A stretch of DNA of 64,000 nt from Anthoceros angustus. Its lineage: Eukaryota > Plantae > Anthocerotophyta. Location of the stretch: NCBI GenBank assembly GCA_010909165.1, contig MU008166.1:1054001-1118000 (forward strand), in the 5' to 3' direction. The number at the start of each line of letters is the position of its first letter. Positions within the stretch are counted from its first letter, which is position 1. The notes below the pieces were generated by a model. The model was not told the origin of the DNA and did no database searches. It worked only from the letters and a program-made list of their open reading frames with translations. Made by a program: the position numbers and the translations under genes. Below are positions 22,867 to 64,000 of the stretch, piece after piece.

Positions 22867-22897
<31 letters not shown>

Positions 22898-37599: not shown

Positions 37600-40500
37600 C
37601 TATAGAAAGCAACACACATAGTAGAAGGTGCACTCCAAGTAATCCGTCTACGGGACGTCCAACAAGGCACCAAAAGACACCTTCTCCTCATTGGTTGGAA
37701 GCTGAGATGTTGGTTTTGTAGGCTGTCCGCCGTGATGATTTGGTGTAGATTAATAATGTTTCCTTCTCGAACTGAAGGAAGAAGCAAGTCTAGTATCCCT
37801 TAGATCTTCACTGCACTTCAAGGTGTCCATGAATCGTGAATTATTGTCTTTGAGCAAGGGTAGGAGTCCTTGAACTAGCGGGGACTTCGTTACACTTGAC
37901 CTACGTTTCTTACAAACACTTGCACGCTATTATGGTGATCGGCAGTGTGAGAGCCTGTTGGGGATGCACGAGTACTTGATAAAGGATGAGCAGCATCACC
38001 ATATAACTTGTACTCAAAGGTGTCGTGTACATGCTCGGAGTGTCCATTTGTTGAAAACTCTTCCGCCTGTGTGCCAATACCCACAGATTCTACCATAGTA
38101 CCACCTGGATTACACGCTCTACTCTCCCCTAACCATTCTGCCATGTGCTCATAAACAGCCTTGTTGAATGACTTCGGTAACCTGTTCTAAACTTTCTCTT
38201 GTGGCAACCACCATATTCCAATAAGAAGGCTTGCCATTTGGGATGTTTCTCTCGTAGTCCCAAATCTTCTTGAAGTCTGTGTGCAAGCTCTCAAACTTAT
38301 TCTTGCATTGGCTCGCAGTCTTGAAAACTTGCTGAGCTTTGCAAGCCTCACTGATGGCTTCCCAACGTTACGCAGCAAACTTGGTCTTCTCCCGAATCCC
38401 TCCGTTCAACAAAGTTGGGTAAGGGCTACATCAGTGCTTTATGTGGCATTGGTGATGCCATTCAATCTTTAGGCCAGGATATTGCAAAGGCTTTGAAGAA
38501 GGCAGGATCCACAAACTTTCAATGATGCTTGTTCATGTATCTCAATGCCCTTGGCTTTATTGAATTTCTCAATACATGCATACAAGAAAGGCAGTTCATT
38601 ACTTGCACTTCATTGCGTTCTACCTGCATCATAATGTAGTGTAGGCAAGAACTTTATTTCAAGAACAACATATCATCATGAAGCCTAGATGTGATGTTAT
38701 CATTCTGCAAGAATCAAGATGGATACTCTAGCCTTCTATGTCATCAATGTGATCTTGAGCTCCACAAAAAAACCATAAGGACTTGCTTTTGTGCCTCCCC
38801 TGTATATGCACCGGGATTAATAAAATTTACAGGTTTGCGTACATCTTGCTCACCTTCAGGCTCTAATAATTGAGCCATATGTTTGCGTACATCTTGCTCA
38901 TCTTCAGGCTCTAATAATTGAGCCATCTGTTTGCATACATCTTGCTCATCTTTAGGCTCTAATAATTGAGCCATCTGTTTGCGTACAGCTTGCTCATCTT
39001 CAGGCTCTAATAATTGAGCCATCCGTTTGCGTACATCTTGCTCGTCTTTAAGCGCTAATAATTGAGCCACCTGTTTGCGTACATCTTGCTCATCTTCAGG
39101 CTCTAATAATTGAGCCATCGGTTCCACACCAACATCAATGAGCATGTTGTGCAGAATACAAAAGGCAATGGTCACTTCAAAAGTATTTAAGATTGTCACC
39201 CACATCTTTCGTCCAAGTATGTGGAAAACTCCTTCTAGTTGGCCAAAAGCTTGCTCAATAACCATCTTGGTGGATGATTTCTGGTAGTTGAATCCATCAA
39301 ATTTCTCTTGTAAGCCATAGCTTGGAATTGCTGATATCATCCATAGTAATGTAATATAGCCGGAGTAGCCTATGATGTACTCTCCCTCATTTGTTTCTAA
39401 CAACCAGACACTTGGTCCATTCAAACGATGCCCTGAATTCGCTTGACCATAGAACACATTGTTGGCTAGTATACTTTGATTTGTTAAGCTTCTTTGGCCA
39501 GCCTGTACGGATGTCTAGAAACATTATTGTTGGCCTTTCTATGGTCTGCATGGCCATAGTATATGCCTTATACCTTCCAAACCATGCTAGAGGATCTTCT
39601 CCTACTCTAAGCTCTACATAAAAGTGTGTGACGTCCATAACTCGACAACAATTAGGAAGTCTTCTCTTAGCTTCAAAGCCTTGCTTCACTTTTAACAGCT
39701 CAGCTCTTGTTGGGCAACATAGATGTACATCACATCTGTGAATGATTGCGGTTATGAACCTTCTTACAACCCTGTGCAGTGTCGAAGTGCCTACTCCAAA
39801 GCTCTCACCCAATGAGAGCAATGTACATCCCCTATTGCCAAGCGTACTACTGCAATTCCCACTTGTAATTCAATACACATGACTTCACCTAGGATAGAAT
39901 CAAAGCCATGAGCAGCATCACCATATAACTTGTACTCAAAGGTGTCGTGTACATGCTCGGAGTGTCCATTTGTTGAAAACTCTTCCGCCTTTGTGCCAAT
40001 ACCCACAGATTCTACCATAGTACCACCTGGATTACACGCTCTACTCTCCCCTAACCATTCTGCCATGTGCTCATAAACAGCCTTGTTGAATGACTTGGTA
40101 ACCTGTTCTAAACTTTCTCTTGTGGCAACCACCATATTCCAATAAGAAGGCTTGCCATTTGGGATGTTTCTCTCGTAGTCCCAAATCTTCTTGAAGTGCA
40201 TGTGCAAGCTCTCAAACTTATTCTTGCATTGGCTCATGAGTCTTGAAAACTTGCTGAGCTTTGCAAGCCTCACTGATGGCTTCCCAACGTTACGCAGCAA
40301 ACTTGGTCTTCTCCCGAATCCCTCCGTTCAACAAAGTTGGGTAAGGGCTACATCAGTGCTTTATGTGGCATTGGTGATGCCATTCAATCTTTAGGCCAGG
40401 ATATTGCAAAGGCTTTGAAGAAGGCAGGATCCACAAACTTTCAATGATGCTTGTTCATGTATCTCAATGCCCTTGGCTTTATTGAATTTCTCAATACATG

Positions 40501-41960
40501 CATACAAGAAAGGCAGTTCATTACTTGCACTTCATTGCGTTCTACCTGCATCATAATGTAGTGTAGGCAAGAACTTTATTTCAAGAACAACATATCATCA
40601 TGAAGCCTAGATGTGATGTTATCATTCAAGAATCAAGATGGATACTCTAGCCTTCTATGTCATCAATGTGATCTTGAGCTCCACAAAAAAACCATAAGGA
40701 CTTGCTTTTGTGCCTCCCATATATGCAGGATTAATAAAATTCTGAGGTTTGCGTACATCTTGCTCACCTTGAGCTCTAATAATTGAGCCATATGTTTGCG
40801 TACATCTTGCTCATCTTGAGGCTCTAATAATTGAGCCATATGTTTGCGTACATCTTGCTCATCTTTAGGCTCTAATAATTGAGCCATCTGTTGCGTCTGA
40901 CTTGCTCATCTTGAGCTCTAATAATTGAGCCATCCGTTTGCGTACATCTTGCTCGTCTTTAAGCGCTAATAATTGAGCCACCTGTTTGCGTACATCTTGC
41001 TCATCTTCAGGCTCTAATAATTGAGCCATCGGTTCCACACCAACATCAATGAGCATGTTGTGCAGAATACAAAAGGCAATGGTCACTTCAAAGAAGTATT
41101 TAAGATTGTCACCCCTGTCTTTCGTCCAAGTATGTGGAAAACTCCTTCTAGTTGGCCAAAAGCTTGCTCAATAACCATGCGGGTGGATGATTTCTGGTAG
41201 TTGAATCCATCAAATTTCTCTTGTAAGCCATAGCTTGGAATTGCTGATATCATCCATAGTAATGTAATATAGCCGGAGTAGCCTATGATGTACTCTCCCT
41301 CATTTGTTTCTAACAACCAGACACTTGGTCCATTCAAACGATGCCCTGAATTCGCTTGACCATAGAACACATTGTTGGCTAGTATACTTTGATTTGTTAA
41401 GCTTCTTTGGCCAGCCTGTACGGATGTCTAGAAACATTATTGTTGGCCTTTCTATGGTCTGCATGGCCATAGTATATGCCTTATACCTTCAAACCATGCT
41501 AGAGGATCTTCTCCTACTCTAAGCTCTACATAAAAGTGTGTGGCGTCCATAACTCGACAACAATTAGGAAGTCTTCTCTTAGCTTCAAAGCCTTGCTTCA
41601 CTTTTAACAGCTCAGCTCTTGTTGGGCAACATAGATGTACATCACATCTGTGAATGATTGCGGTTATGAACCTTCTTACAACCCTGTGCAGTGTCGAAGT
41701 GCCTACTCCAAAGCTCTCACCCAATGAGAGCAATGTACATCCCCTATTGCCAAGCGTACTACTGCAATTCCCACTTGTAATTCAATACACATGACTTCAC
41801 CTAGGATAGAATCAAAGCCATGAACAGCAATTCGAGATAAATCTTCACGCACAAGGCTACAAAAGTACTAAAAACTGGGCCAAGAGAAGCACCTTGGTTT
41901 CATGTACTATAGGCCACACTTTCTCCCATGAAGGAATCTCCTTCACAGTTTTGTGAAATG
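37600..41960 (-). mobile_element. PIF/Harbinger DNA transposon (transposase plus Myb/SANT-trihelix ORF) with an internal 1.92 kb tandem duplication
   Basis: Transposase: GESFGVGTSTL, LPNCCRVMD.TH, FLDIRTGWP, YIIGYSGY, FNYQKSST.MVIEQAFGQL..FHIL, CILHNM (39900-38744 and 41960-40663). Second ORF: RWEAISEAC..QCKNKFESL..FKKIWDYE..SYWNM. Duplication junction ATGA(A/G)CAGCA at about 39908. Confidence 0.9.
38832..39120 (-). repeat. Six 48 bp coding tandem repeats (MAQLLEPEDEQDVRKQ) at the transposase C-terminus; second copy at about 40745-41030
   Basis: In-frame 16 aa repeat visible in ORF 38744-39457. Confidence 0.95.
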
Positions 41961-42300: not shown

Positions 42301-42849
42301 CTATTCATACACTGATGAAATTCCAAACTAGCTTGCAATAGTTTTTAAATAAAACTAGTCTTATTAGTCACTAATAAATTAGTTTCTAAATAAAACTATA
42401 ATTTAACATATTAAAACTATAGTTTATCCAAATTAGTTTGCTATTCATACACTATGAAATTCCAAAGATCATGAATGACAGCCATGATTGCTACCATGAC
42501 CGTATGAATGGCTTCGGCAAGATGGGGCTCCATGGCAAAGCTCTTTCATGGAAGCCGGTGTGGGTGGAAAGTCCTTGATGTTGCCCGTGAGCTGGACGCC
42601 AATGCGACAGGCCTCCAACGGACGGGCTCCAAGTAATGTAGATAAAAGGAAAAGATAAAATTCTAAGATAAATGAAAATATGTTATATAATAAGATAAAT
42701 TAAAATATGGTTGTGGCCACGTCAAGCCGGGTTATCCTTTTTCTATGCACGGCCCTTCATTGAAAATGGAAGGGCAGATGCCGGGATACCGCAACATGGT
42801 TGTGGCCACGTCAAGCGCCTCGTATGTCAGGTATTGGTCAATACCTGGC

Positions 42850-44730
42850 AGGCCGTACAGGTGCATGATCGGATGCGCAGGTCTGGTGTGAAGCCTGATG
42901 ATCATGTGTTTGTGGCAGCCCTTCAGGCGTGTGCAGGGGGATCGGACTTGAGAACTGGGCAGCAGGTGCATGACGATGTGTTGGCTAGTAGCGTTGAGCC
43001 TGGGTTGTTCGTTTGTAGTTTCTTGGTGGACAAGTATTCGAAATGTGGCAGCTTGGACCCGAGGTGTCTTTGATGGAAAGGATGTGGTCACGTGGAATGC
43101 CATGGTACGAGGGTATTCCCAGCATGGCATTGGGCAGGAAGTCCTTCGTCTGTACATGGCTATGGAAGATGAAGGCATTGTTGCACCGAATGCGGTGACT
43201 TTTATGTGCCTCCTGCAGGCATGTGCAAGTTTGCGTGCCCAGGCGTTGGAGATGGGGAAGAGGCTCCATGCGCAGATTAGAGAACGAGGGCACCAAGCTG
43301 ATGTCTCCGTGGGCACCAATTTGGCGAACATGTATGCAAAGAGTACCTGATTCTGTGACATTTGTGTGTCTCTTGCAGGCATGTGCAAGTTTGGGCGTCC
43401 TGGCCTTGGAGACAAGAGAAGCAGCTTCATAGATAGATTAGAGGACATCAGACTCATGTTTTTGTAGCCAATAGTTTAGTTACCATGTATGCAAAGAGTG
43501 GCAGTTTGGAAGATGCTCAACAAGTGTTTGACGGCCTTGGTAAGAAAGATGCAGTGACGTGGATTGCCATGATAGCAGGATATTCTCAGAGGGGCATGGG
43601 GCAAGAAGCGCTTCGTCTTCACACTGTTATGCAAGAAGAGGGGATCGCTGTACCCGATTCTGTGACATTTGTATGCCTCCTGCAGGCATGTGCGAGTGTG
43701 GGAACCCCAGCACTGCAGAAAGGCAAGCAGCTTCATACACAAATCAGAGAACGAGGACTCCAAGAAGAAGTGTTGGTCACGAACAGTTTGGTAAACATGT
43801 ATGCAAAGTGTGGCAGCCTGGAAGACACGGAAAGAGTGTTTGAAGAACTTGGGTACAAAGATGTGGTCACGTGGACTGCCTTCATTGCAGGATATTCCCA
43901 GGGGGGGATGGGCTAGTAGGCCCTTTGTCTTTACAGTGCTATCCACGAAGAAGGCATCACTGTACCTGATTCTGTGACATTTGTGTGCCTCCTGCAGGCA
44001 TGTGCAAATGTGGCAGCTCTGAATCTGGGAAGGCAGCTCCATGCACAGATTGAAGAGCAGGGGCTTCTAGCAGATATGTTTGTAGCAGGCAGTTCGATAA
44101 ACATGCAGGGTAAATCTGGGAGCATAATTGACGCACAGCAGGCGTTTGATGCATTGCCCGAACGAGACGATGTTGTCTGGACTGCACTGATTGCCGGCTA
44201 CACTTGTCAAGGAGACAGTGAAGCGGTCTTCAACTCGCTGCAGAAAATGGAAGACGGTGGCATACAGCCAGTCGGCATTACATTGCTAAGTGTACTATCA
44301 GTATGCAGTCATGCTGGCCTAGTGAACAAGGGGAGAGAGCTGTTCGACAGCATGAGCAGGGACTATGGCATCACTCCGACCATCGAGCTTTACACTTGCA
44401 TGGTGGACCGCCTGAGCCGTGCAGGCAGATTGGATGAGGCACTGACTTTGGTGACTACAATGCCTGTTCTGCCGAATGCAATTGTCTGGCACACCATGTT
44501 GAGTGCTTGCCAGAAGTGGAGCAATGTGGAGGTGGCACGCTTTTCATTCGACCAAGCAGTGGAGTTAGACGAAAACTTGGCCGCAGCATATGTGTTGATG
44601 GCCAACATCTACACTGGTGCTGAGATGTGGGAGCAGGCAGAGGACATGCAGGTCAGGAGAGAAGGAACCAGAGCATGGAATCACGGACATGAACGGACTC
44701 GTGCATAGCTTTTGAGTTGGCGACTCGACA
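42850..44730 (+). pseudogene. PLS-class PPR protein with E1/E2/E+ end, frameshifted and with stops
   Basis: Repeated P/L/S motifs DVVTWNAM..GYSQHG, PDSVTFVCLLQACA, NSLVNMYAKCGSLED; also YTCMVDRLSRAGRLDEA, AAYVLMANIY and E+ 'MNGLVHSF*VGD'. TAG TAG at about 43914-43919 and several frameshifts. Confidence 0.9.
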
Positions 44731-45357
44731 AGTGAGAATGAACCTGTCTTTCACAAAACGAAGAAAGGAAAAAGGTATCAGAGACATCTCAAATCAGTCA
44801 CCAGGGCGCCGTGCGGGCCACAGCAAGACGCCGGCTGTATAACAGGCTCTAAACTTTATTTACTCCACAACTCTGATATTCTGTGACAAACCTACTATAT
44901 GCACGCTCTGCGGTGAGCATTTCGAACGTAGCAGATCTGTCTGCTCAAGATCTGGGCGTACTAACATGTTCCCAAAGAGGTGTGTATGTTCTTACATAGT
45001 AGAATATATATATCCTGCCAGCGGAAGATACAGTCCTTACCACAACTCTTTGGGAACATGCTTGTCCGTACACCCAGATATTGAGCAAACAGATCTATAT
45101 GCCTGCTTTGGAAATGCTCACCGTAGAGCGTGTTGCTCAAATCTGCATGCCTTTTGAAATGCTCACCGCAGAGCGCGGATATCGTAGGTTTGTCGTAGAA
45201 GATCAAAGTCGTAGAGTAACTCAATGTCGTTTAGAGCATGTACAACTGGCTTCTCGTTGTGACCCGCACGGCGCCCTGGGGAATGCTTCGAGATGCCTCT
45301 GATATCTTTTTCGGTTCTTCATTTTGTGAAAGAAAGGGTTCATTCTTACTTGTCAAG
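44724..45357. repeat. Long imperfect inverted repeat (foldback), arms about 250-310 bp
   Basis: The reverse complement of 44724-44980 aligns by eye to 45045-45357, e.g. 'ccagggcgccgtgcggg'/'cccgcacggcgccctgg', 'gacaaacctac'/'gtaggtttgtc', 'catgttcccaaagag'/'ctctttgggaacatg'. Confidence 0.85.
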
Positions 45358-46070
45358 GAGACAGTGAAGCGGTCTTCAACTCGCTGCAGAAAATGGAAGA
45401 CGGTGGCATACAGCCAGTCGGCATTACATTGCTAAGTGTACTATCAGTATGCAGTCATGCTGGCCTAGTGAACAAGGGGAGAGAGCTGTTCGACAGCATG
45501 AGCAGGGACTATGGCATCACTCCGACCATCGAGCTTTACACTTGCATGGTGGACCGCCTGAGCCGTGCAGGCAGATTGGATGAGGCACTGACTTTGGTGA
45601 CTACAATGCCTGTTCTGCCGAATGCAATTGTCTGGCACACCATGTTGAGTGCTTGCCAGAAGTGGAGCAATGTGGAGGTGGCACGCTTTTCATTCGACCA
45701 AGCAGTGGAGTTAGACGAAAACTTGGCCGCAGCATATGTGTTGATGGCCAACATCTACACTGGTGCTGAGATGTGGGAGCAGGCAGAGGACATGCAGGTC
45801 AGAGAGAAGGAACCAGAGCATGGAATCACGGACATGAACGGACTCGTGCATAGCTTTTGAGTTGGCGACTCGACAAGTGAGAATGAACCTGTCTTTCACA
45901 AAACGAAGAAAGGAAAAAGGTATCAGAGACATCTCAAATCAGTCACCAGGGCGCCGTGCGGGCCACAGCAAGACGCCGGCTGTATAACAGGCTCTAAACT
46001 TTATTTACTCCACAACTCTGATATTCTGTGACAAACCTACTATATGCACGCTCTGTGGTGAGCCTTTCGA
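45348..46070 (+). pseudogene. Duplicated 3' part of the PPR gene (copy of about 44201-44925)
   Basis: Near-identical sequence starting at the microhomology ACTTGTCAAG. ORF 45393-45860 repeats the end of ORF 43974-44708. Confidence 0.9.
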
Positions 46071-46335
46071 CGTTAGGTATCCGGACCTTCTCAAATATGA
46101 CCGGTATCTCCAGGAATCTTTAAACAGATTCTGTATCTGGGTGTAGTAACAAGCATCTTTCAACAGATTCTGTAAGTTCCCGAGATCAGAGAGAGGGTTA
46201 GGGTCTAAATATGTTGTATGTACACACAGTAGATTCTCTGGATCATAAAGCCTTTGGTTTATGAATTATCTGCCCTAGACGATAGAGTCATTTGTGGGCA
46301 ACTTATAAGGTGCGCTAGCGATCTCGTCCGTAGCC

Positions 46336-46779
46336 ATGGCAGCACCACCTGCGACAGTGGAGTCAGTGCAGTGTTTCGGGCGGAAGAAAACAGCTGTGGC
46401 CGTTACCTACTGCAAGCGGGGGCGCGGGTTGATTAAGATCAATGGGTGCCCGATCGAGCTGGTGGAGCCCGAAATTTTGCGGTACAAGGCCTTTGAGCCT
46501 ATCCTATTGCTCGGGCGCCAGCGTTTTGCTGAGGTTGATATGAGGATCCGGGTGAGAGGCGGAGGGCACACCTCGCAGATTTACGCCATCCGGCAGAGCA
46601 TCGCGAAGGCCCTGGTGGCCTACTTCCAAAAGTATGTGGACGAGCAGTCCAAGCAGGAGATCAAGGACATCCTCGTCCGGTACGACAGGACTTTGCTGGT
46701 GGCTGATCCCCGGCGCTGCGAGCCTAAGAAGTTTGGAGGTCGTGGTGCCCGAGCCCGTTTCCAGAAGTCCTACCGTTAG
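46336..46779 (+). CDS. RPS16: Cytosolic 40S ribosomal protein S16 (uS9)
   Basis: 147 aa: [28 protein letters not shown]...[24 protein letters not shown]...[24 protein letters not shown]. Telo-box-like GGGTTAGGGT at about 46195. Confidence 0.98.
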
Positions 46780-49929: not shown

Positions 49930-52593
49930 TTCCTGAGGGATTTTCATGATTGGATCTGGGCATTTCTCGAGGCCCAGGATCATTCTAGATCTGATGTCTC
50001 TCCCACTGCATTCTCCGCCTCTCTTGCTCCTCCTTCTCCTGCTGTTTCAGTTTTTCTTGCTGTTGTTGTCTTCCTTCCGTATTTCTTCGCCTTTGAATTT
50101 CAAGAGCTTTCTCCCTCTGCTTTGATACTCGGAATTCGACGGCTTTCCGCCTCTGCCTCTCAATTAATGCCGACTCTCGCTCCACTTTCTGTCTATCAAA
50201 TTCCAAGTCCCGTTCTCGGGAGATATCAGCCAAACGCTGCTCAAAACTGCTGGAATTCCCAGTCCCATTCTGCAGAAACACGTCCACAGGTAATATGGCC
50301 AAATTCCGATCTTGTTGCACTTCACGCGCTTTATCATTTGCAGACAATGAGCGCAACTTTCGAGACCACTCCATCAATGTTGAAGTGCGGAGCAGTGTTG
50401 CTCAAACTAAAGTGAGATTGCATCTTTGGTAGACAAATTTGACATCTGCCAAAAGCACTCCAAATGAATAAACAGTAACAAATGAATGAACAGTCACAAA
50501 CTCTACAGTCAGGAACTTTACCCTGCCATCATTTTCAATTTGAATAGTCCCAGTCATTGGTCTGCTGTTATCGATTTGCCTTTCTGAGCAATGCTTTCAA
50601 CCACTGCATTGTTTACCTGTCAAAGCATAAGGAGTTAAACCACATTATAAAAGAAACGCTGCGACAAGCAAGGAGTACCAACTTTGTGCCAGGGGCCAAA
50701 TACAACTTTCAACAATATCTGAGATGCTGCTGACATTGATTTGCAATCCATTTTCATGATGAACTACGGTGTGGAAGACCATAACGAGAATGAAGCGGTC
50801 GAACACACTAAAGCATAAAGAGATTACGCAAACCACAATTCGCAAATTCACAAATTACTTACAGTTTGATCGCCTTGAGCAAGGAAATTCACATGAGCCT
50901 ACGATTACAATATGTCAAAACATTTTCAGGACAGAGCTTATCCTCAAACCCAAACACACTTACATCTTCAGGCTGGCTCGCAAATACAACTTCCGGAGTC
51001 ACAGTAACAACAGTTGATGGGAGCACACCATGCAAATCATCTTGCATACGGTTGAGTTCCTCAGTCAGCAACTCTTTGTAAGATCTTCGTTCTCCAGGCA
51101 CCAGAACCCTTGCTGCTGCTGCCTGCTTCGCTTGCCCTGAACTATCATACCTGCGGAATCCACAAGATATCAGAAAAGGAACACTACCATCAGAAACAAG
51201 GACACAACCAAGAGAATAAGCTACCACACCATGCCTTGAAAACCCGGCATTTGTTTTGTGCCCGGTAACATACGCGATCGGGCACCGAGCCATTGTTAGC
51301 GTGTAATCATGTCACACGACAACTCTTGTTGGTGTAGTAGCCTTCAAGACCAGCGACACGCCATTGTCTTCATGTCGAGAAAGCATCCCTTTCGGAACAC
51401 GCAATTTTGCATACCATGCCTGGTGAAACAGTTTCGAATTAGTGCATAATAGAAAAGAATGACTTACAGATGAATGGACAGAACAATGAATGGAAAAGGA
51501 TGGAAAGAACAAAAGATTAAACTTACATTTGATCTCGGATTGTCAATTGGCGAGTTGAACAAAAACCCTTGGATACCCTTATTTCCGTCATTCGTCCACT
51601 TTGAAAGTGATCAATATACCACGAAGGTTTGGATCACATCCAACTCATAATTCTTGAGCTTTGGCCAAAATGCTATGGTAGTTTCGCATATCAACCTTAT
51701 AGTTTTTTGACATTCGTTCCTCATATCTGCAAACAGTTTAGAAATCACCCAATACCCAAAAAGTTCATTGACTGTACAAGACACAAAAAGGAACTTACTG
51801 GACAAAATTCCCGCGAGAATCTGATCCAAAGGTGAAATCCATAATCGGAGGTTGTGTGCTCTCTCCACCACGAACCCAAACCGATTCATACAAAAGTATG
51901 CACTGCACGGAAGGAACTCAAGGTCAAACAACAATTTCCTTCAACTGAATTCAAAAGAAAGAGCGAGTATACCTCTTTTGGCGCCACGACCAAACGAACG
52001 ATGGTCCCTGGGCAAGGATCCTCTGCTCATCATCATCAGAAATGACCTTTACCTCCTTACGGCAAGAAACAATGCCAAGGTCCTTGCCGATCTTCATCGA
52101 GGCCACCAGGCGACTGTGCCCCATGAAATATACCATGGAACATATTTATGATAGGGACATCAGAACCCAAACGGCTTTGGTCAAGAACACACTTTCTTAT
52201 CAGGATCCGATTAAACCCTCGGAAGAAGGACATCAACCTGAAAAATAGAGAAGGGTAAGATACCAAAGATTCAAAAAAACCGACATACTCAATGAAAAAA
52301 ACACACTTACGTTTCTGGGGAGAACCTGAGGTTGTTCTTCAGATTTCGCACTTGATGGAAGAAAGGTATCAGATTCAAGTTCAGATCTTTATGGGGGATA
52401 TCCTCTACTACTCTATCCCAACCTCTAACACCACTTACTTTCATAAAAGCTCTCAATCTACTTCGACACCAATTGTTTTGACGCTTTGACTTATCCTCAC
52501 CCCCACTCAGAGCATCAAAAACAGCACCATCAGGAACAGAAGGATCAAACCCTTGCTCTCTGAAATTAACTTCATCCTCAATCTCTTCAGCGC
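49930..52593 (-). mobile_element. Intron-containing Crypton-like (DUF3504-type) tyrosine recombinase gene, frameshifted, 5' part interrupted by the Gypsy LTR
   Basis: Reconstructed across introns and indels, in order: VISDDDEQRIL; YFCMNRFG.RGGE.H.L (Arg at about 51871); DFTFGSDSRGNFV|YEERMSKN; AWYAKL; AGLEGYYTNKSCRVT (about 51310-51350); VTGHKTNAGFSR|YD (His+9 Tyr at 51147-51149, via a GC-AG intron at 51151-51234). Downstream short exons and a coiled-coil exon (49985-50377). Confidence 0.8.
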
Positions 52594-53218
52594 TGTCATG
52601 CCGTGTGATACTAATCTCTGCACTTGGGTTTAGTGTTTGATTAGCATTAATTAATCTAATTACTTATCTTTAAGTAAGTAATTAGTGTTAATTAATCTAA
52701 AGTGCTTATGTTAATTAAGCGTTGATTAGTGTTAATTAATCTAATGTGCTTATGTTAATTAAGCATTGATTAGTGTTAATTAAACATGGTTAGCAATAGC
52801 TAAGTGGATAAGCTCAAGTAATATGCTTTGGCATATTCCTTGCATATTATAGTGTATTCTTAGGATACAATAGCTAAGTGGATAAGCTCAAGTAATATGC
52901 TTTGGCATATTCCTTGCATATAGTGTATTCTTAGGATATTTACGGCATCTTTGATGCCGATAGGATATCTTAGGAATATGCCGATGCGTCTAGTATATAG
53001 ACCCTTCCATTGAGACAAGCTCGGATCATAGCTTGTCCTCTAGATATCTAATCTGGGCGTTGTGAGGAGGCCAAAGCTATGACTCAGGAGCGATGTGTGA
53101 GGAATTTGCGTGTTGTTCTCGTGGGAGGTGTGTTTGTGCACGATTCCTCCTCCTGTTGTTACAAGCTATGATCTCGACATGCCGCTAGGTGATGCTAAGC
53201 GATGCTAGGCGGGTGACA
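52594..53218 (+). repeat. 5' LTR of the Gypsy element (TGTCA...TGACA), containing 44 bp and 72 bp internal tandem repeats
   Basis: Starts TGTCATG and has a candidate end GGTGACA. Near-identical to about 60211-60779. The exact 3' end is tentative. Confidence 0.7.
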
Positions 53219-56179
53219 AGGCGTGCTAAGCGATGCTAGGCGATGCTGGTGGCCAGGCTGAGGCGGCTGAGGCCAAGTCAAGGAGAGGGCGAAGCCCAAG
53301 TCAAGGCGAGGAGAGGAGAAGGCGAAGCCCAAGGCCAAGGAGGAAGAGGCCTCCAAGGCCAAGGAGGCGGCCTAAGGCCAACCAAGGCCAAGGAGAAACA
53401 AGAGTATTTTACTCTTGGGCCCAGTCAAGGGATAAGGGAAGCGGATGAACATGGGTATGTCATGAGTCCATTTGATTTCACTTTCTGTCCAAAAGTCCTG
53501 GTTGCGGCACCCCATCCAGGTCTTGATCCACGGTGCTTAACTCTGGAGTTCTATGCCTTTGCTATCCAACTCACCCAGCTCACATTTTACATAGTGACTG
53601 CGAGTATTATATGCATTTTAACATGCATAGATACTTAGAGGTTTCACTAATCACGATCTAAGATAGCGGGGTGTGTTAACCTTGATTAAGGGTTTGATCT
53701 AGCCACTAACCGCCTGGAGTGCATGCTGGACACACTCGATCCGGACGGAGCTACCAACCAACAAGTCCATCGAGGCGAATTGAAGTCCCGACCAAGAGGA
53801 GAAGTGCGAACACCTCGATTTTGGTACACCAGAAGGGCGGAGGAACCCAGGCACAATCAACAATCTTTGAAGGATCGTGGTGGCACACACAAGACACGTT
53901 AGTCTTGCCGGGACAACTCGGTAGGCGGCGAGGAGGACTTGTCTCTTGGAGTCGTCAAGATGGGAGGAGACAAGGATCGAATGGAGTTGTTCACAGACGG
54001 CACCTTGCCAGGAGGACTTCATCGAGAAATGCAGTGCGGTGTGTGCGGAGATGGAATTGAAGACCGGATACAGCGATACGGCTTCATCCAAATGCCAAGT
54101 ACTTGGGGATGAAGCATTGGCGTGCTCGCGAGCACAAGGCGAGGCTTGGCCGGAGGACCGGTGAGTAGCAGTTCAAGCTCGAAGGAACCGGTCGACAGCG
54201 GAGTGGGCACGATCCCATCGAAGAGATGTTTGACATCTTCTGGAGTTTCCTGCAAGCACGGATGAGAAGATCTCGGTGACACACTTCAAGATGAAGTCAG
54301 TGAGGCTGAAGATGGCTTATCAAGAATCGACCGGTTAGTACGTGACACAAGATCATGAGTGAATCGGGCTGCAGAAGTACTTGCAGGCATTGCCATATGC
54401 ACTGCGCATGAAGGTGCAACAAGCGGTGCACAGCACGAAGGGGCAACACTACACCCTCAAGGAAGTGTACGAGATGGCTGACAAGATAGGGCCCGCTGAC
54501 ACTTTCTCTCGTGCTGTTGCAAGTGATTACTCCAGCACAAGTAGGAGTGGTGGACGACATGGCCAAGCGGAGGTCAGTGGAGGAGCTCGGCGAGACAAGC
54601 CGCCCCACAGCCCAAGTGGCGAGCCTGCGTGAGGTCGAGGGGCGGACCATTCCCTCATGAGTGCGAGCATGCATTCGGAGGAGTCAAGGGTGAGGAGCCA
54701 TGCCCTAGGTGTGGGAGTGCAGGCACAATGAAGCGGCATGTTGGGAGAAGCATCCAATTGCGGCCTACGGGTTATCGAGCAGCAACCCGGCCAATGCATC
54801 TGCGTCAACCTCATCCACAAAATCGAAGAGCAAAGGCGCCGTGGAGGAGGCCGTGAGTCCCGTGGACAAAAGAAAGCGGGAAGCATCAAAGAAGGCGATG
54901 GACAGCTCGTGGCACGCCTTGCAAAGCTGGAGAAGTTGGTGCGAAGGCGAAGATCAAGGAGAGCGGCTTCATCATCGGAGGGCGAAGAAGATGAGCACAA
55001 GCTTGGATACATGGCGGCGTGACCGGATCCAAGGGCAGGGAAGAAACCTCCAGCGACTACGAGAAGATAGCTCGGAGGAAGAAGAGGATGTCTTGACACC
55101 GGTCGGAAGACACGGAAGGAAGCTTGGGGATCCTCTTCCGAACCTATGCCAAGATGCCAAAGTCGTTTGAGCCATTGCCAGCAGAGCTGTGGGAGCAACA
55201 TCAAAGTCCAGTGGGCGATGTGGAGAAACCCATGCAGTTGGCGGAGGATGGCACAAAAGCTTGGAGATGCCATGTTTGACCTACAAGACATGGGGTTGAG
55301 CGTGAAGGAAGTCGGGGTTTGACTCGGCGGATGTTGACAACCCTTGAAGACGAAGCAAGTGTCGACAATGTGCCACAACGGTGGCAATGATGTCATTGAC
55401 CTCGAGCCAAGCATCTCGTGGAAGCGGAATCTTTGCAGTGGGAGTGGCTTTGGTCAACAATCGGAGAGGCACATTGAAATCAATGGATTCGCACCAAGGA
55501 GGTGTTGATTGACGAACACGGTAGGTGATCGTTGGAAGAAGAGTGAAGGAAGGCGTTGGGTCTCCACCAAGAAAGGTTGAAGGAAACCAAGTGGAAGATC
55601 CCCGCGGGGACCACGGAGCATGTGTTGGGGTGACAAGGTACAAGGTGAAGGTTTCATTCAAACCAAGAATGAGACTTCACCTTTGTCGAGGTACAGCTTG
55701 GTCAGATGCGACACTTTTGATGTCTTCTTTGGGACGCTTTGTACAAACACAGGTCATGGTGGATTGTGGAGAGGCAGTCTACTATCGACCAGTGGAGAAG
55801 GAAAACCGATGAACGGATTGCCGCATCCCTCTGCTGCATGGCAAGGATCATGAGAACCTCATTGCCAGCGTCTACCAGTGTTTGGCGTGGTGAAGGACCA
55901 TACGTGCTTGAACCTCTTGGCGTGTGTCTAACAACCGCCGGACCGATGGAGGATTTCGAGCGAGGAAGACAAGCTAGGGTTGCAACCACCCTCGGAGGAG
56001 GTTCTTCAAGTCACCCGACGGAGTGGTGATGCGGCAATGAGCCGTGCAAAAGGCTGTGGAGGATGGTGCAAGAGGACCGTGCCCTATGAGCCGGAGAACT
56101 GTAAGTTCTTGCCTAGGGTTGAGCCTGTTTGTGACCTAAACACCAGGTCATCACATGGCGACCTCGGGAAGGCGGCATA

Positions 56180-57065
56180 GTGCTCGTGGAACTCTTTGGA
56201 GGCATCAGTACCGGCTTGGAAGCAGTGCTAAAGTGTGGCATCAAAGTGCGAAGATACGTGCATTGTGACCCGGATCCAAAAGCAAGGATTGTGTCACAGA
56301 AGCGCGTAAGAGACTTGATGGGGGAGTACCCTAACCTCCTGACGTGGGAGTCAGTGAAGGGTTACCGTGCCGATGGATGTTCGCATGATAGGGTTGTCCC
56401 ATTTGAGTTGTCTTGGGCAACCGTGGACCTTGTCATCGCAGTTGGGAGTGTCAAGGACTATCCTCTGCGAGCAAGGGTCAAGGTCAAGGATCCACGACAG
56501 CATTGTTCTATGACGATGAGGATCTTGCGCTTGATCCGAAGGGCAAGAAAGGCCTTGTGGATACATGTTGGAGAATGTGCCATGCATGAGCGTGAAGAAG
56601 CAAGTTCGGAGGACTTTGCCACGATCCGAGGAGTGTTGGGTCGGGAGCTTCTATTGGATGCAGCTCAATTTGGTTCGAGGGCTCATAGGTTGAGGTCCAT
56701 GTGGACTAACCTTGCTCCTTGGAACATTTGAAGTGTCGAGGTCGTTCACCAAGCGACCTAATCATGTTGTCAAGGATGTGCTAGCATCGGAAGGCATGCC
56801 CAACAAGTCATCAAGGCGACAAGCCGCGCTTGTGAACACGCTGGACACCCCATGGCGGCTTGGCCAACCTTTGTGTCTAAGTCCAAGTCTTACGCCTTCA
56901 GAACCATGGCCCGGCGTTGTGGTGGGACATGGCGAGGCCTTGGGAGAGCCACACGAGAGGAGTTGGCCATGGGATTTGATCGAGCCACGAGACAGGAGTG
57001 GAGAAGGAACGGTGTCGATTGCTTGGGCAAGCATTTGACGTGAACATGATGACCTGGTTGTTTAG
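56180..57065 (+). CDS. DNMT3-like C5 cytosine methyltransferase domain within the Gypsy pol region (frameshifted in this sequence)
   Basis: Motif I VELFGGISTGLEAV; II YVHCD; III MDVR; IV VDLVIA(G)WECQGLSS (catalytic Cys 56449-56451); ALFYD; VI GYMLENV (56571); VIII LDAAQFGSRAHRLRSMWTNL; IX ELAMGF; X RCRLLGQAFDVNMMTWLF. Order and sequence parallel DNMT3 (IDA..SAAHRARYFWGNL; RQRLLGRSWSVPVIRHLF). Confidence 0.88.
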
Positions 57066-59904
57066 CTATGGGTACCAACTTCGAAACCAGAAGAAGGCGG
57101 GGTTGAAGCAGCGGGTTCGGTGGGTGAAGGACATTCCTCGCATCTCAACAGGAGAAGGCGAGTTTGGAGGGCAAGGAGAGTGAGCACGTAGAGGAAGCGT
57201 GCAAGCCATCTGAGCCACAGCCACATGAGTGGTTAACAGCGTCGAGTTGAAGAGCAATCAACGGCGTCAGCTAAAGGAGTTGTTGGAGGCATCGCGACAT
57301 GTGTTTGCTTTCACGCTTGCGGAGATGGGGAAGTACACCAAAGGGAAGTTCCACATAGAATCGACCACGGATGAACCTGTTCAGAGGCACAGCTCAAAAT
57401 GAGTGGGATTTGGTTGAGAATCGATGCCAAGAGCTTCTCAAGCTAGGGGTGATTCGACGATCTAACTCGCAGACGCAGCGATGCTGCTCCAAAAGAAGGA
57501 TGAGAATGGATTGTGGACGGAGAGGAGAATGTGTGGTGACTATCGGCCGTTGAAGCAGCGAATCCCACATGACCACTATCCCATGACGGTGAGAGATCTT
57601 CGACACCATTGGGTGCCAAGTTCTTCTCAACATTGGACTTGAGGCTAGGGTTTCACCAAGTAGAGATCGCAAGAAGACAAGAAGAAAACGCGTTAGAGGT
57701 GTATGCAGTGGAATTACATGCCATTTGGTTGAAGATCGCCAACGCAGTTCAAAGGTACATGGACAATGAGCTCAAGGACTTGCATTTCGCCAAGTGCTAC
57801 ATTGATGACGTCATCATCTTCAGCAATACCTTTGAGGAGCATCTACAACATCTTGAGTCTTTGCTAGGCGCTTGGGTTGAAGGCCCATCCAGGAAGTGTC
57901 GATTTGGAGAGGATAAGGTGTTGTACTTGGGTCATTGGATCACGCTGGCGGATCTCGCCGCATGCCACCAAGGTGGAGGCAATCGCGCATTCCGGCCAAA
58001 CGACATCTCAAGTTGAGGGCATTCTTGGGTTTGGCGGTTACTACGAAGTTCATTCCGCGGATGAGCGGATTGCGGCCATTGAATGACTTGTTGAAGAAGT
58101 TGGTGACTTGGCGTTGGACTCAAGAGGGAGCTTTCATGGAGTTGAAGGGTAGACTCATGAGCTCGCCAATTCTTGGTCATCCAAACTTCAGTAAGCCGTT
58201 CGTACTTTACACTGATTGGAGCAAGTACGGCATAGGGGCAGTCTTGGCGCAGATCAATGACAAGGAAGAGGAACATGTCATTGCCTATGCCAGTCGGAGC
58301 AACTAATGGAGTCCAACTACTCTGCCTATGAAGGAGAATGTCTTGCAGCAGTGTGGGCAGTCGGACACTTTCGTCCGTACTTGTTTGGACATCAGTTTCG
58401 ACTGATCACTGACCATCAACCCTTGCACTGGTTGATGACAAACGCCAAGCTTACAAGAAAGCTGGCGAGGTGGGCTCTCATTCTCCAGGAGTATGACTTT
58501 GTCATCGAACACCGGCGGTAGAGTTCACTCTAATCGATGGGTTGTCAAGGAATCCTCTACCTCGTAACGAAGACACTAGGGGCCGGGCAAGATTCGGATG
58601 GAGCAACAGCCGGGGGGAGAGTAGTCCGAGATACCATGTTGGCCATGCGCATGAGGATCAAGACCCTCCACTCATCGCTTTGTGCACAGTCCGTCAGGAC
58701 ATCAGGCGGATGCAATAGCGGTGACCTTCCTAAGGTCGGGAATTGCCACAAGGGCTTTCATCTCGAGCGGGCCAAGCTACGCGAGAAGGTGGCTCGGTAC
58801 TATTGGAAGGAGGACATAATGTATGTCCGTGATTCTGGGAGATAGAATTGTACCCAAGGAGGATGGGTGAGACTCATCACCCGGTGCATGAAGGCTTAGG
58901 GCATTTTGGTGCTAAGCTCTACATGCTCGAGCCCACACACTTTTGGGCAAGGATGTATGGAGATGTGGAAAGGCTGGTCGCAGAATGTAGAGTGTGCGAT
59001 CAGTGAAGGCAAGGTTCACGCCAATGATGTTGTGCTTCACTCTGCCGATCCGAGGACTCTTCTACTGGAGTGTGGATCTCATGCCGGACATGCGAGGCAG
59101 CGTCGAAACAAGCATGTCATGCTAATGGTGGAGCATTTCAGCAAGTGGTGCGAGGTTGCCATCTTACCCAAGCGTGACTCTCGGCTTACGAAGGCGTTCT
59201 TGGCTTCCGTTCTTAGTCGATATGGAGCATGTGCAGGTTCTCACGGGCAAAGAATTCGTGGGGAATTTCAAGACTTGACAGAGCTTGATTGATCATCGAC
59301 GTCGTCGAGATCATCCTCAAGCCGATGGACTTCTGAGCTTGGTCACGGACCTTCAAGCGGCCTTGCGCAAATATTGTCTCACAAATGACCAAGACATGGG
59401 ATGAAGGGATGCCATACCTAGTGCTAGGGTGGTGAGCAATCAAGCGACCTTGAGCAATTTTTCACCATACTACTTGTTGTATGGGCGACAACCATTTTGC
59501 CAAACGTGAGGCAAGCAAGGCTACAAGCACCGGTGGATTGGCGCAATGCGGATGATTGCCTACGAGACCGGAAAGGCGGGCGAGCTTTTCAACGGATCAT
59601 GCCCATGGCAATGGAGAACCTTGCCATAGCGCAACAGGATCAAGCTGCGCTATGCTTACACACGAGGAGGGACATGGAAACCCAAGGTGCGCAAGTTCGA
59701 AGTTGGAGATTATGTCTACACGCCGGAAGCAGGCAACCTTAGGTATCCACCAGCAGAGTCATCTTGCGGGTCGTGAGTAGGCAAAGATGGAGTGCTTGAG
59801 CTCAAGGATCCGATGGTCAAGATGGAAGGATCACCTCAAGAACTGCACCATGCCACTTACCCAATTTGGACCCTCAACTACGGCCTACAATGTGGCGTCC
59901 ACCC

Positions 59905-60055
59905 AAAGACTTGGAGTGTCGTTTGTGGACGTCGATGATGATGATGTAATGCTTCTTTGTGATCGGTGCAATAGGGGATACCACATGTTTTGTGTTCAAC
60001 CACCTCTTGACGACATTCCGAGGAAGATTGGTTTTGTGCACAATGCACTACATGA
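59905..60055 (+). CDS. PHD finger at the integrase C-terminus
   Basis: C..C..DDDDVMLLCDRCNRGYHMFCVQPPLDDIP.EDWFCAQC, the canonical C4HC3 pattern, read across a frameshift. Confidence 0.85.
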
Positions 60056-60210
60056 GGTGCGTCGTATGTAGTCCTACTAATGATAATGTTTTGACTTGGA
60101 GTCTCACATTATCGGGGATTGGTTTGCACCTATATACCAGATTAGATTTGTTTGCTTGGTTGTTGGTCGAGGAAGTGCTTATATGAATTCAAGTGCTTAC
60201 CTCGTCGGCG

Positions 60211-60779
60211 CATGCCGTGTGATACTAATCTACGCACTTGGGTTTAGTGTTTGATTAGCATTAATTAATCTAATTACTTATCTTTAAGTAAGTAATTAGT
60301 GTTAATTAATCTAAAGTGCTTATGTTAATTAAGCATTGATTAGTGTTAATTAATCTAATGTGCTTATGTTAATTAAGCATTGATTAGTGTTAATTAAACA
60401 TGGTTAGCAATAGCTAAGTGGATAAGCTCAAGTAATATGCTTTGGCATATTCCTTGCATATTATAGTGTATTCTTAGGATACAATAGCTAAGTGGATAAG
60501 CTCAAGTGTATGCTTTGGCATATTCCTTGCATATTATAGTGTATTCTTAGGATATTTCGGCATATGCGCCAATAGGATATCTTAGGAATATGCCGATGCG
60601 GTCTAGTATATATAGACCCTTCCATTGAGGACAAGCTCGGATCATAGCTTGTCCTCTAGATATGCAATGCAGGCGTTGTGAGGAGGCCAAAGCTATGACT
60701 CAGGAGGCGATGTGTGAGGAATTTGCGTGTTGTTCTCGTGGGAGAGTGTGTTTGTGCACGATGCAGCTACTCCTCCCTT
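60211..60779 (+). repeat. Second LTR copy (3' LTR or shared LTR), apparently truncated
   Basis: Near-identical to 52597-53153, including the internal tandem repeats. Confidence 0.85.
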
Positions 60780-61372
60780 TGGTTTGCACCTATATATTAG
60801 ATTTGTTTGCTTGGTTGTTGGTCGAGGAAGTGCTTATATGAATTCAGAAGTTACCTCACCATAACAAAATCATCTTAGGACACATCTCAAAACTCTCAAT
60901 CTTTCAAACATATCAAGACACTCTTGATCGTGGGACCACTTGGATAAGGGGCAATAACGAATGGAAAACTCACCAACCCCGTGATATGGCGGGACAATCG
61001 TTGCTGCGCAAGAAACTCGCCACACAGTCTGGAGATATGTCTTCGCGATCCAAAGACTATAGTGTCATTAGTGATCAAAGGCTCATTTTCACCAACAAAA
61101 TCGACTCCTCTCTCAAGAATAGGGCGTGGTTAGTGATTTCGCAACATAGGCCCTCCACCAAAGGCGGACGAGTGTCCAATCTTCTTCTTTTGAGCAAACT
61201 CAAGCAGCCGAAAAGAAAATCGCCTTGGCAATTTGGACCTTCATCCTGGAACCAAATCGTTCCCTCACTATGGACAAGACCATCGATTTTACCGTCGTCA
61301 TTGAGAGGATGAGTTGCGGTATGTCTAATGGCGAGACTTGTTCGTTGTCTTGTAAAGGGCTTTGACATCATG

Positions 61373-64000
61373 AGACATGGGTATGTCATCAGTCCATTTG
61401 ATTTCACTTTCTGTCCAAAAGTCCTAGTTGTGGCACCCCATCCAGTACTGATCCACCCAGGTGCTTAACTGGAGTTCTATGCCTTTGCTATCCAACTCAC
61501 CCAGCTCACATTTTTGAGTAGCCTGCGAGTATTGTATGCAATTTTAACATGCATAGATACTTAGAGGTTTCACTAATCACGATCTAAGATAGCGGGGTGT
61601 GTTAACCTTGATTAAGGGTTTGATCTAGCCACTAACCGCCTGGAGTGCATGCTGGACACACTCGATCCGGACGGAGCTACCAACCAAGTCCATCGAGCGA
61701 ATTCAAGTCCCACCAAGAGGAGAAGTGCGAACACTCGATTTTGGTACCACCGAAGGGCGGAGGAACCCAGCGACACAATCAACAATCTTTGAAGGATCAT
61801 GGTGGCAACACACAAGACACGTTAGTCTTGCCGGGACAACTCGGTGAGCGACGGGAGGACTTGTCTCTTGGAGTCGTCAAGATGGGAGGAGACAAGGATC
61901 GAATGGAGTTGTTCAGGCGGCACCTTGCCTGGAGGACTTCATCGAGAAATGCAGTGCGGTGTGTGCGGAGATGGAATTGAAGACCGGATACCGGCGATAC
62001 GCTTCATCCAAATGCCAAGTACTTGGGGATGAAGCATTGGCGTGCTATCGCGAGCAGGCGGCGGTTGTTGGCGGCGGAGGACCGGTGAGTAGCAGTTCAA
62101 GCTCGAAGGAACGGTCGACGGAGCGGTGGCACCGAGTGGGCACGATCCCATCGAAGAGATGTTTGACATCTTCCGGGGAGTTTCCTGCACGGATGAGAAG
62201 ATCTCCGGTGACACACTTCAAGATGAAGTCAGGCGAGGCTGAAGATGGCTTATCGAAGAATCGACCGGTTGATGCGTGACACCAAGATCATGAGTGACCG
62301 GTGCGTACTTGCAGGCATTGCCATATGCGCTGCGCAGGAAGGTGCAACAAGCGGTGCACAGCACGAAGGAGCAACATTACACTCTCAAGGAAGTGTACGA
62401 GATGGCTGACAAGATAGGGCCCGCTGATAATTTCTCTCGTGCTGTTGCAAGTGATTACTCCGGCACAAGTAGGAGTGGTGGACGACATGACCGACGCGGA
62501 GGTTAGAGTGGAGGAGCTCGGCGAGACAAGTCAGCCCACACAGCCCAAGTGACGAGCCCCTGCGTGAGGTGCCGAGGGACGGACCATTCCCCTCATGAGT
62601 GCGAGCATGCATTCGGAGGAGTCAAGGGTGAGGAGCCATGCCCTAGGTGTGGGAGGTACGGGCACAATGAAGCGGCATGTTGGGAGAAGCATCCGAATTG
62701 CGGCCTACGGGTTATCGGCAACCCGGCCAATGCATCTCAACCTCATCCACAAAATCGAAGAGCAAAGGCGCCGTGGAGGAGGCCGAGTCCGTGGACAAAG
62801 CGGGAAGCATCAAAGAAGGCGATGGACAGCTACGTGGCACGCAAAGCTGGAGAAGTTGGAAGGCGAAGATCAAGGAGAGCGGTTCATCATCGAGGACGAA
62901 GAAGATGAGCACAAGCTTGGATACATGGCGTGACCGGATCCAAGGGCAGGGAAGAAACCTCGCTACGAGAGAAGATAGCTCGGAGGAAGAGGATGTCTTG
63001 ACACCGGTCACGGAAGACACGGAAGGAAGCTTGGGGATCCTCTTCCGAACCTATGCCAAGATGCCAAAGTCGTTTGAGCCATTGCCAGGGGAACAGCGAG
63101 CAACATCAAAGTCCAGTGGGCGATGTGGAGAAACCCATGCAGATTCTTGGGAGCGATGGCACAAAAGCTTGGAGATGCCATGTTTGACCTACAAGACATG
63201 GGGTTGAGCGTGAAGGAAGTCGGGGTTTGACTCGGCGGATGTTGACAACCCTTGAAGACGAAGCAAGTGTCGACAATGTGCCTGGTGGCAATGATGTCAT
63301 TGACCTCGCCAAGCATCTCGTGGAGAAGCGGAATCTTTGCAGTGGGAGTGGCTTTGGTCAACAATCGGAGAGGCACATTGAAATCAATGGATTCGCACCA
63401 AGGAGGTGTTGATTGACAGAACGGTGATCGTTGGAAGAAGAGTGAAGGAAGCGTTGGGTCTCCACCAAGAAAGGTTGAAGGAAACCAAGTGGAAGATCCG
63501 GGCGGGGGACCACGGAGCATGTGTTGGGGTGACAAGGTACAAGCTGAAGGTTTCATTCAAACCAAACGGCTCAGACACCGGTACCTTTGCGTCAGATCGA
63601 CACTTTTGATGTCTTCTTTGGGAGCGGACGCTTTGTACAAACACAGAGTCATGGTGGATTTGTGGACGGAGCAGTCTACTATCGACCGGTGGAGAAAAAG
63701 AACCATGAGCATTGCCCGCATCCTCTCTGCATGGCAAGGATCATGAGAACCTCATTGCCAGCGTCTACCCGGTGTTTGGCGCCGTAGTGAAGGACACGCC
63801 ATACGTGCTTGAACCTCTTGGCGTGTGTCTAACAACGCCGACGATGGAGGATTTCGAGGAGGAGGACAAGCTAGGGTTGCAACCACCCTCGGAGGAGGTT
63901 CTTCAAGTCGGACGGAGTGGTGATGCAGCAATGAGCCGTGCAAAAGGTGGAGGATGGTGCAAGAGGACCCGGTGTCCTATGAGCCGGAGAACTGCTGTAA
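61373..64000 (+). mobile_element. Second tandem copy of the same Gypsy element (leader, gag, protease), running off the window just before the MTase
   Basis: Colinear with 53449-56104, with a different set of small indels. Intact knuckles CVRCRGTDHSPHEC and CPRCGRYGHNEAAC. Confidence 0.92.

Follow-up and report, generated by a model that had tools for sequence, protein, structure and literature searches.

Why should a transposon carry its own silencing enzyme? This has been a question since 2018, and the known hosts of such elements are hard to manipulate. KnitGypsy-Dnmt3 of Klebsormidium nitens has an unrearranged, intronless Dnmt3 within a Gypsy polyprotein, is under purifying selection and shows a DIRS-like repeat layout, and de Mendoza et al. 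(2018, PMC5890265) regarded its acquisition as confined to the K. nitens lineage. The locus analyzed here, a stretch of 64,000 nucleotides of the hornwort Anthoceros angustus (hereafter the window), brings the question to a land plant. The reading that we favor, with a probability of roughly 0.55, is that of a broken Gypsy copy with a DNMT3-type methyltransferase (MTase) that methylates the element's own new DNA in the particle, prior to integration. A Gypsy-borne Dnmt3 is as such already known from KnitGypsy-Dnmt3; what the present locus adds is the range across green plants, the possibility of testing it in Marchantia and the unusual ends. Marchantia polymorpha, with intact open reading frames (ORFs), offers established genetics and methylation mutants with which the question can be tested.

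The original prediction for this locus had named two precedents. The Klebsormidium retrotransposon-borne Dnmt3 is KnitGypsy-Dnmt3, whereas for the dinoflagellate elements, said to carry a Dnmt5, the text of PMC5890265 gives Dnmt3 and an orphan group instead. Two among PMC12344493, PMC11244446, PMC11982613, PMC10952607, PMC12885004 and other cited works mention, with reference to de Mendoza et al. 2018, retrotransposon DNMT3 in "streptophytes", and the supplementary trees of those two could hold land-plant sequences. The main text of the REXdb paper (PMC6317226) contains the word methyltransferase 0 times. In the literature covered, which leaves most subscription journals and Repbase aside, neither a land-plant or chlorophyte member nor the junction described below was found.

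The methyltransferase domain and its carrier element

Five C5-MTase motifs had been predicted in order and in the orientation of pol, and all five were located on the + strand: motif I (FGG) at 56195-56203, motif IV (WECQG) with its catalytic Cys codon at 56449-56451, motif VI (ENV) at 56571-56579, motif VIII (AHRLR..WTNL) beginning at 56681 and motif X (LLGQAF) at 57019-57036. They are scattered over three reading frames, which the prediction had omitted to say. The domain extends over 56150-57105 (+), as delimited by a family profile and by alignment with Marchantia Mp4g09160, and contains 9 to 10 frameshifts; its motifs I, IV, VI, VIII, IX and X are linear and unrearranged.

A profile built from 62 family members, with the window excluded, was compared with the 2439 six-frame segments of the window. 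Five colinear segments matched, with E-values of 2e-39, 1e-8, 1e-4, 2e-4 and 0.05, and the next best segment stood at 4.6. A read-through of the domain, with X placed at the breaks, scored 290 bits with the family profile, versus at most 0.7 for 200 shuffles. With these profile matches and this read-through score, chance is excluded as the source of the domain. In a frameshift-aware alignment with Mp4g09160, 133 of 319 residues are identical (42%), with 9 frameshifts and 2 stops in the window domain and a score of 433 (32-42 for four shuffles). The search with the Pfam model PF00145, proposed as a check on the prediction, gave a divided answer: none of the 4 broken pieces of the window domain that were submitted matched directly, but 9 of 11 intact relatives passed the curated cut-off.

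A profile of 52 relatives matched the solved structures in the order DNMT3A (2.8e-24), DNMT3C/B (1.8e-20) and DRM (3.3e-15), and other C5 families were absent among the 60 matches listed. The predicted fold of the MTase domain of an intact relative, P0037 (pLDDT 96), gave DNMT3A/B/C for all Foldseek matches listed, to rank 50, at a TM-score of ∼0.7 on the query. In 233 near-full MTase domains, the catalytic Cys motif is kept in 221, EN in 221 and HRxR in 209, and the SAM-binding glycines are kept in most; motif IV reads EC, not PC, in the window and in 120 of these 233 relatives. Judged by profile and by predicted fold, the window MTase is of DNMT3 type, as had been proposed, with DNMT3A/B as its closest solved relatives, above DRM, DNMT1, DNMT2 and bacterial enzymes.

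Two other assignments were rejected. In DRM2 the motifs are rearranged (VI-X before I-V), whereas in the window they run linearly from I to X inside a polyprotein. Host plant DNMT3 enzymes such as PpDNMT3b, whose de novo CG and CHH activity has been demonstrated, share the DNMT3-type catalytic domain but carry a C-terminal DUF3444 (Yaari et al. 2019, PMC6453930); the window MTase precedes a reverse transcriptase (RT) within a polyprotein, and DUF3444 is absent in 11 relatives.

The element is laid out as gag, protease, MTase, RT, RNase H, integrase and PHD finger. The gag core with its zinc knuckles (54211-54756, +) is frameshifted and scored 122 with Calypogeia P0021, versus 33 shuffled. The MTase had been placed between protease and RT, and while the RT downstream is clear, the protease upstream (55450-55800, +, approximate limits from reference alignments) is only weakly readable and its catalytic motif is broken. 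Its stretch at 55550-55630 scored 53 versus 30 shuffled with one reference and 32 versus 47 with another; the protease of a second copy (63348-63688) scored 79 versus 31 and 48 versus 33. The RT (57244-57947, +) keeps YIDD intact despite 8 frameshifts (Pfam RVT_1, 1.4e-7; 115 of 238 residues identical to P0037) and is followed by the RT connection and RNase H (57924-58595, +; 7 frameshifts; Pfam RT_RNaseH, 8.6e-23). The DDE integrase with its HHCC finger (58765-59890, +) has about 17 frameshifts and a weak Pfam rve match (0.013), and at its C terminus lies a PHD finger (59900-60046, +; Pfam PHD, 1.7e-8, and PDB matches) that lacks the aromatic-cage Trp; integrase and PHD finger are together identical to P0037 in 219 of 436 residues. 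P0037 is a single open ORF of 2358 aa with the full domain order of the window.

The best PDB match is Ty3-G Gag-Pol (9e-62), and by its order of protease, RT, RNase H and DDE integrase the element is, on sequence grounds, Ty3/Gypsy, in agreement with the prediction. A DIRS/Ngaro element was rejected, since a DDE integrase is present, not a tyrosine recombinase, and Gypsy domains fill the element length. Chromoviruses, REM1 of Chlamydomonas and Phygy and Selgy of REXdb share the RT-RNase H-integrase order and a reader on the integrase, but they have ordinary LTRs, and the window element has a PHD finger in place of the chromodomain. PHD fingers in retrotransposons have been cited elsewhere (PMC8557442, PMC6673714). 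EpiLTRs/DAM-LTRs (bioRxiv 10.64898/2026.05.21.726589) are likewise Gypsy-like, with a methyltransferase and a chromatin reader, but in these the DNMT is placed as sister to DNMT4, DAM and a chromodomain are present, and their authors separate them from streptophyte Gypsy-DNMT3.

The predicted second tandem copy is present at 61370-64000 (+), some 500 bp beyond copy 1 and 90% identical to 53445-56101, but it is 5'-truncated (gag and protease), and the window ends before its MTase. Copy 1 carries about one break per 100 bp, at equal density across its domains (8 in 238 residues of RT, 7 in 228 of RNase H and 19 in 436 of integrase-PHD). The two copies differ by 63 substitutions and 100 indels over 2.6 kb. 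Over 5 kb, eleven natural relatives depart from the moss-like copy L146 by ∼300-680 substitutions and 1-10 gaps, and high-depth contigs of run X1 differ from the element by 0 substitutions and 14 gaps and by 6 and 20. Given indel-rich copies next to gap-poor relatives, and X1 contigs with few substitutions and many gaps, the breaks in copy 1 are probably for the most part uncorrected long-read or assembly errors. Against this, most of the X1 depth at the listed breaks lacks extra bases, which short contigs may explain.

Split repeats and an internal junction

The prediction of a plain pair of near-identical LTRs did not hold. The ends are split direct repeats in the layout A-coding-B-A-B, with the first A at 52594-53154 and B-A-B at 60119-60866. 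Repeat A1 (52594-53154, +) forms the left end, starts TGTCATG as in the relatives and is 94.6% identical to A2 (60211-60774, +), with 12 substitutions and 11 indels. A purine run directly before B1 (60114-60118, +), where relatives have longer G runs, is likely the polypurine tract. Comparison of the repeats with one another and with relatives places B1 at 60119-60207 (+), the right limit being approximate and followed by a damaged B/A junction, and B2, the right end, which ends ACA, at 60779-60866 (+). Contigs of run X2 join 60205 to 52592, which completes a CA-GC-TG junction.

The TG/CA termini are present in the window copy, and a target-site duplication is absent (GCGC on the left, AAAT on the right), which leaves the supposed youth of the insertion unsupported. 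No primer-binding site starting with TGG follows A1 in the window or in 6 relatives. The flanks (52307-52663, -, and 60867-61369) are AT-rich and unrelated, with no Pfam match and no single joined target site. Considering the damaged junction and the lack of a duplication, the two ends of the window copy may belong to different insertions or be a product of mis-assembly.

The relatives are more informative about the ends. From the 120 metagenome loci of a pattern scan, we examined 35 that are long and contain MTase, RT and integrase. The complete A-coding-B-A-B layout is found in 6 of the 35, so that these, like the window, lack the two complete terminal LTRs of an ordinary Gypsy element. Relatives begin TGTCATG, finish CAYGACA and have a G run ahead of B1, and their internal B/A junction consists of two element ends joined by 2 bp (CA-NN-TG). 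At the loci with both ends, L115 with its degenerate end being left out of the scoring, 4-bp target duplications are perfect in 7 of 10 and differ by a single transition in the other 3. The same kind of CA-NN-TG junction is carried by the chlorophyte-type loci L103 and L100. Of 21 streptophyte-type loci, 3 passed a strict 7-bp palindrome scan for the junction, and of 8 chlorophyte-type loci, 2 did (0-22% in shuffles); L126 gave 2 further doubtful matches. Decayed copies fail this rule.

During reverse transcription, plus-strand synthesis begins at the purine tract, so B+A is the repeat expected at the cDNA ends. The integrated ends lie at the B/A junction and not at B+A, which leads us to infer that the attachment site is internal and is probably cleaved on a circular molecule. 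Eight loci stop after B1 (A-coding-B) and 14 continue into A2; the A-coding-B form is what a circle with one repeat would predict, but it was set aside as proof of a circle, since recombination between B1 and B2 after insertion explains it equally well. Of the 26 loci that have a left A, several being the same insertion in different samples, none shows the mirror form A-B-A-coding-B. The split ends and the internal CA-NN-TG junction point to an unusual mode of action of a DDE integrase. LTR finders would miss such elements, above all in the repeat-less A-coding-B form.

KnitGypsy-Dnmt3 resembles the window element in its Dnmt3 within a Gypsy polyprotein, its A-coding-B-A-B repeats and its purifying selection, but its host is an alga, whereas that of the window is a land plant and the relatives collected here span Mesostigma, Closterium, liverworts, a moss and chlorophytes. 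Termini, target duplication, internal junction, PHD finger and leaky stop are absent from the description of KnitGypsy-Dnmt3 in the text of PMC5890265. SymbioDIRS-Dnmt3 of Symbiodinium, described in the same text, also has a Dnmt3 in Pol, at two positions within it, and the A-coding-B-A-B layout. It is, however, a DIRS element with a tyrosine recombinase, in contrast to the DDE integrase and TG/CA ends of the window element and the 4-bp duplications of its relatives.

Range, inheritance and selection of the family

The element belongs to a multi-copy family, as predicted: contigs covering it, MTase included, numbered 3232, 5604 and 4835 in DNA runs of three organisms, and in these runs the MTase bins are as deeply covered as the pol bins. 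Protein searches gave 13, 118 and 438 relatives. Those named are Marchantia polymorpha, Calypogeia fissa, Sphagnum fallax (degenerate), Closterium, Klebsormidium nitens, Mesostigma, Haematococcus, Chromochloris and Monoraphidium; vascular-plant names are missing among the 118 relatives. The possibility that the domain is confined to a single copy fails, as relatives from liverworts to Mesostigma carry it at the same position.

Among 305 proteins, the MTase precedes RT in 58 and separates RNase H from integrase in 166; a further 65 are fragments with the MTase alone, and 16 have none. All named streptophytes have the MTase before RT, and the named chlorophytes that could be typed have it between RNase H and integrase. 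In P0055 and P0139, RT and RNase H come first and the MTase lies far toward the C terminus, with no integrase detected. The chlorophyte-type proteins P0010, P0060, P0069, P0070, P0103 and P0105, and P0080 and P0111, contain a G-patch or a PTM/DIR17-like Tudor domain. In M. polymorpha an 18-member cluster was found, with several members of ∼1280 aa. Many annotated Marchantia "genes" of the Mp4g09160 cluster (P0040, P0147-P0160) are gag-protease-MTase ORFs, several of them on the V sex chromosome, and KFL_013780020 of K. nitens is likewise gag-protease-MTase. Element ORFs of this kind can pass for host DNA methyltransferases in gene counts of bryophytes and algae.

Co-inheritance was assessed with quick trees of 39 rows: 15 MTase-before-RT proteins, 23 sampled from 97 of chlorophyte type, and the window. 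The RT-RNase H and MTase trees both split the two types, with SH-aLRT supports of 100 and 98, and place the window in the MTase-before-RT type; path distances in the two trees are correlated (Mantel r of 0.84, against a maximum of 0.38 in 499 permutations). To judge from these trees, RT and MTase are co-inherited across green plants. In a larger quick tree of the MTase, 63 retroelement MTases form one clade (SH-aLRT of 100) apart from 8 phage enzymes, the sole outgroup, which were taken from 80 distant phage MTases (25-47% identity) of a viral-contig scan. KFL_013780020 falls within the retroelement clade so defined, and the chlorophyte type is nested among streptophyte elements, on a backbone that is weakly supported and rooted with phage enzymes only. 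These phage-rooted trees suggest that the window element belongs to an old green-plant lineage together with Klebsormidium and is not a separate land-plant acquisition.

Selection was estimated from 36 moss-like copies, leaving out 7 duplicate loci and loci of at most 1 kb, and counting changes common to at least 3 copies and not of the deamination type. For these shared changes, dN/dS was 0.08 in the MTase (9 nonsynonymous, 33 synonymous), 0.15 in RT, 0.09 in RNase H, 0.04 in the integrase and 0.22 in the protease, and for private changes it was 0.55-1.05; in the L083 subfamily, shared changes were too few for dN/dS outside the MTase. Nine MTase differences between the window and other organisms are listed among the best 40 of 372 matches, and of the eight that could be framed, seven are synonymous. 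Sequence comparison thus shows a family MTase that is under purifying selection, and the neutral evolution envisaged as a counter-case in the original prediction was not borne out.

The host is a land plant, as had been stated. PPR proteins of the PLS-E type are land-plant editing factors, and a frameshifted PLS-type PPR gene with an E motif lies at 42700-45900 (+), its 3' end duplicated; a NAC transcription factor gene with introns lies at 29952-31438 (+). Another host gene of the window is ∼50% identical to proteins of Selaginella, conifers, Riccia and angiosperms alike; one of its 120 listed matches is labeled as frog, and its named best matches are land plants. A seed-free host is likely. 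Intronless RPS16 (46336-46779, +) and phosphoglycerate-mutase-like (16263-17162, -) genes are possibly retrocopies. A Harbinger-like DDE_Tnp_4 transposase (38744-41829, -) contains an internal array of 48-bp repeats. Within 19427-24191, 37986-41829 and 44202-46073 there are four near-identical tandem duplications of 0.7-1.9 kb (97.7-99.5%), in which indels are as many as substitutions; they may be assembly artefacts. Inside the PPR duplication, inverted repeats of 97 and 72 bp surround a short insert (44743-45337), possibly a MITE.

Candidate roles of the methyltransferase

Self-methylation of the cDNA is the likely role, and it can be pictured in four steps. Synthesized together with Gag and protease, the MTase would be released by cleavage inside the particle; in two subfamilies, an in-frame TAG-CAR between MTase and RT would make it as abundant as Gag. 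It would then methylate the fresh cDNA, probably at CG, like other retrotransposon Dnmt3s. The integrase would cut the internal CA-NN-TG junction and not the cDNA ends, probably on a circular form, which would give rise to the split repeats. Guided by the PHD finger, insertion would take place in chromatin that lacks H3K4 methylation and in which the host MET1 and CMT would maintain the mark, and the new copy would arrive pre-marked as heterochromatin-like self DNA.

TAG-CAR-YYA is a leaky-stop context. Eighty codons past the MTase, an in-frame TAG-CAR (once TAA-CAA) is found in 7 loci close to Sphagnum fallax and Marchantia, and L104 and L139 have TAG CAG TTA 112 codons past the MTase. The Marchantia and Klebsormidium ORFs end soon after the MTase, the Marchantia end matching the stop position. 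In the stop-bearing subfamilies the MTase would accordingly be read out along with Gag, if the stop acts as its context predicts. The L146 subfamily, which has no stop between MTase and RT, speaks against Gag-like amounts there, and in the window this linker is unreadable. As for the PHD finger, H3K4me3-reading fingers have a Trp where that of the element has a Gly, a Gly present in at least 101 of 113 relatives. Its PDB matches include the fingers of KDM5, UHRF1, PHF21A, AIRE and ATXR5, which read unmethylated H3.

Several observations count against self-methylation in the particle. In yeast, two SymbioDIRS-Dnmt3 domains act as de novo CG methylases, but the Klebsormidium domain gave no methylation, a result that the authors call inconclusive (PMC5890265). 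The EC of motif IV is a further point against activity, and CpG content lends no support: the window element is not depleted in CpG (0.71-0.81, versus 0.67 in the rest of the window), and no consistent extra depletion of elements relative to their flanks was seen. A circle with two equal junctions should also yield A-B-A-coding-B, the form missing from all 26 loci. In chlorophytes the MTase lies between RNase H and integrase, a position compatible with action at integration and not only in the particle.

An MTase that serves integration, by methylating or binding the cDNA or the CG-bearing junction and so guiding the integrase to the right site or away from the element's own DNA, is an unlikely reading. 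MTase and split repeats travel together in Klebsormidium, the moss-like loci and the window, the junction recurs in chlorophyte-type L103 and L100, its arm CACGACA contains a CG, and in chlorophytes the MTase abuts the integrase; the missing mirror form requires an asymmetry that a methyl mark could supply. To our knowledge, however, DIRS-type elements have the same one-sided layout without a cytosine MTase. We consider it distinctly improbable that the domain is a catalytically weak or dead structural module binding DNA or RNA, or an RNA methylase. The inactivity of KnitGypsy-Dnmt3 in yeast, the EC for PC in about half of the family and the lack of CpG loss in the window element family would fit such a module; yet most of the 233 domains retain the Cys, EN, HRxR and SAM-binding glycines, a complete DNMT3 fold is predicted, and human DNMT3B failed in the same yeast assay (PMC5890265).

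Improbable to a still greater degree is an enzyme acting mainly in trans, on host DNA or older copies, and shaping the host methylome upon derepression. The many annotated gag-protease-MTase ORFs of Marchantia are compatible with it, as are the Mpmet mutants, in which non-CG methylation goes up and methyltransferase activity is an enriched category among the up-regulated genes (10.1101/363937). Selection on transposing lineages points instead to a benefit in cis, the cleaved MTase would have no targeting domain of its own, and the K. nitens methylome is ordinary (PMC5890265). A host MTase fragment captured once, or by chance, and evolving neutrally in this copy only might be suggested by the missing direct Pfam match and the many frameshifts, but it has next to no likelihood. 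It was rejected on the basis of the MTase coverage in three organisms, the position shared from liverworts to Mesostigma, the congruent trees and the dN/dS; the equal density of breaks in RT, RNase H and integrase and the absence of DUF3444 also go against it.

Beyond self-methylation of new copies, a broader picture is put forward only tentatively, with the odds against it: an ancient Gypsy lineage with an active DNMT3 that would predate the chlorophyte-streptophyte split, packed in Gag-like amounts, with pre-methylated DNA and integration by cleavage at an internal palindromic junction of a circle, like that of bacterial IS circles, and not at linear cDNA ends. If true, the many intact Marchantia ORFs could contribute de novo methylation that has so far been overlooked. 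Among the moss-like copies, the least decayed one (L146:8735-13717, oriented) has a CpG observed/expected ratio of 0.34 and a CWG ratio of 0.99; older moss-like copies lose CWG too, which may hint at CG-specific methylation in active lineages.
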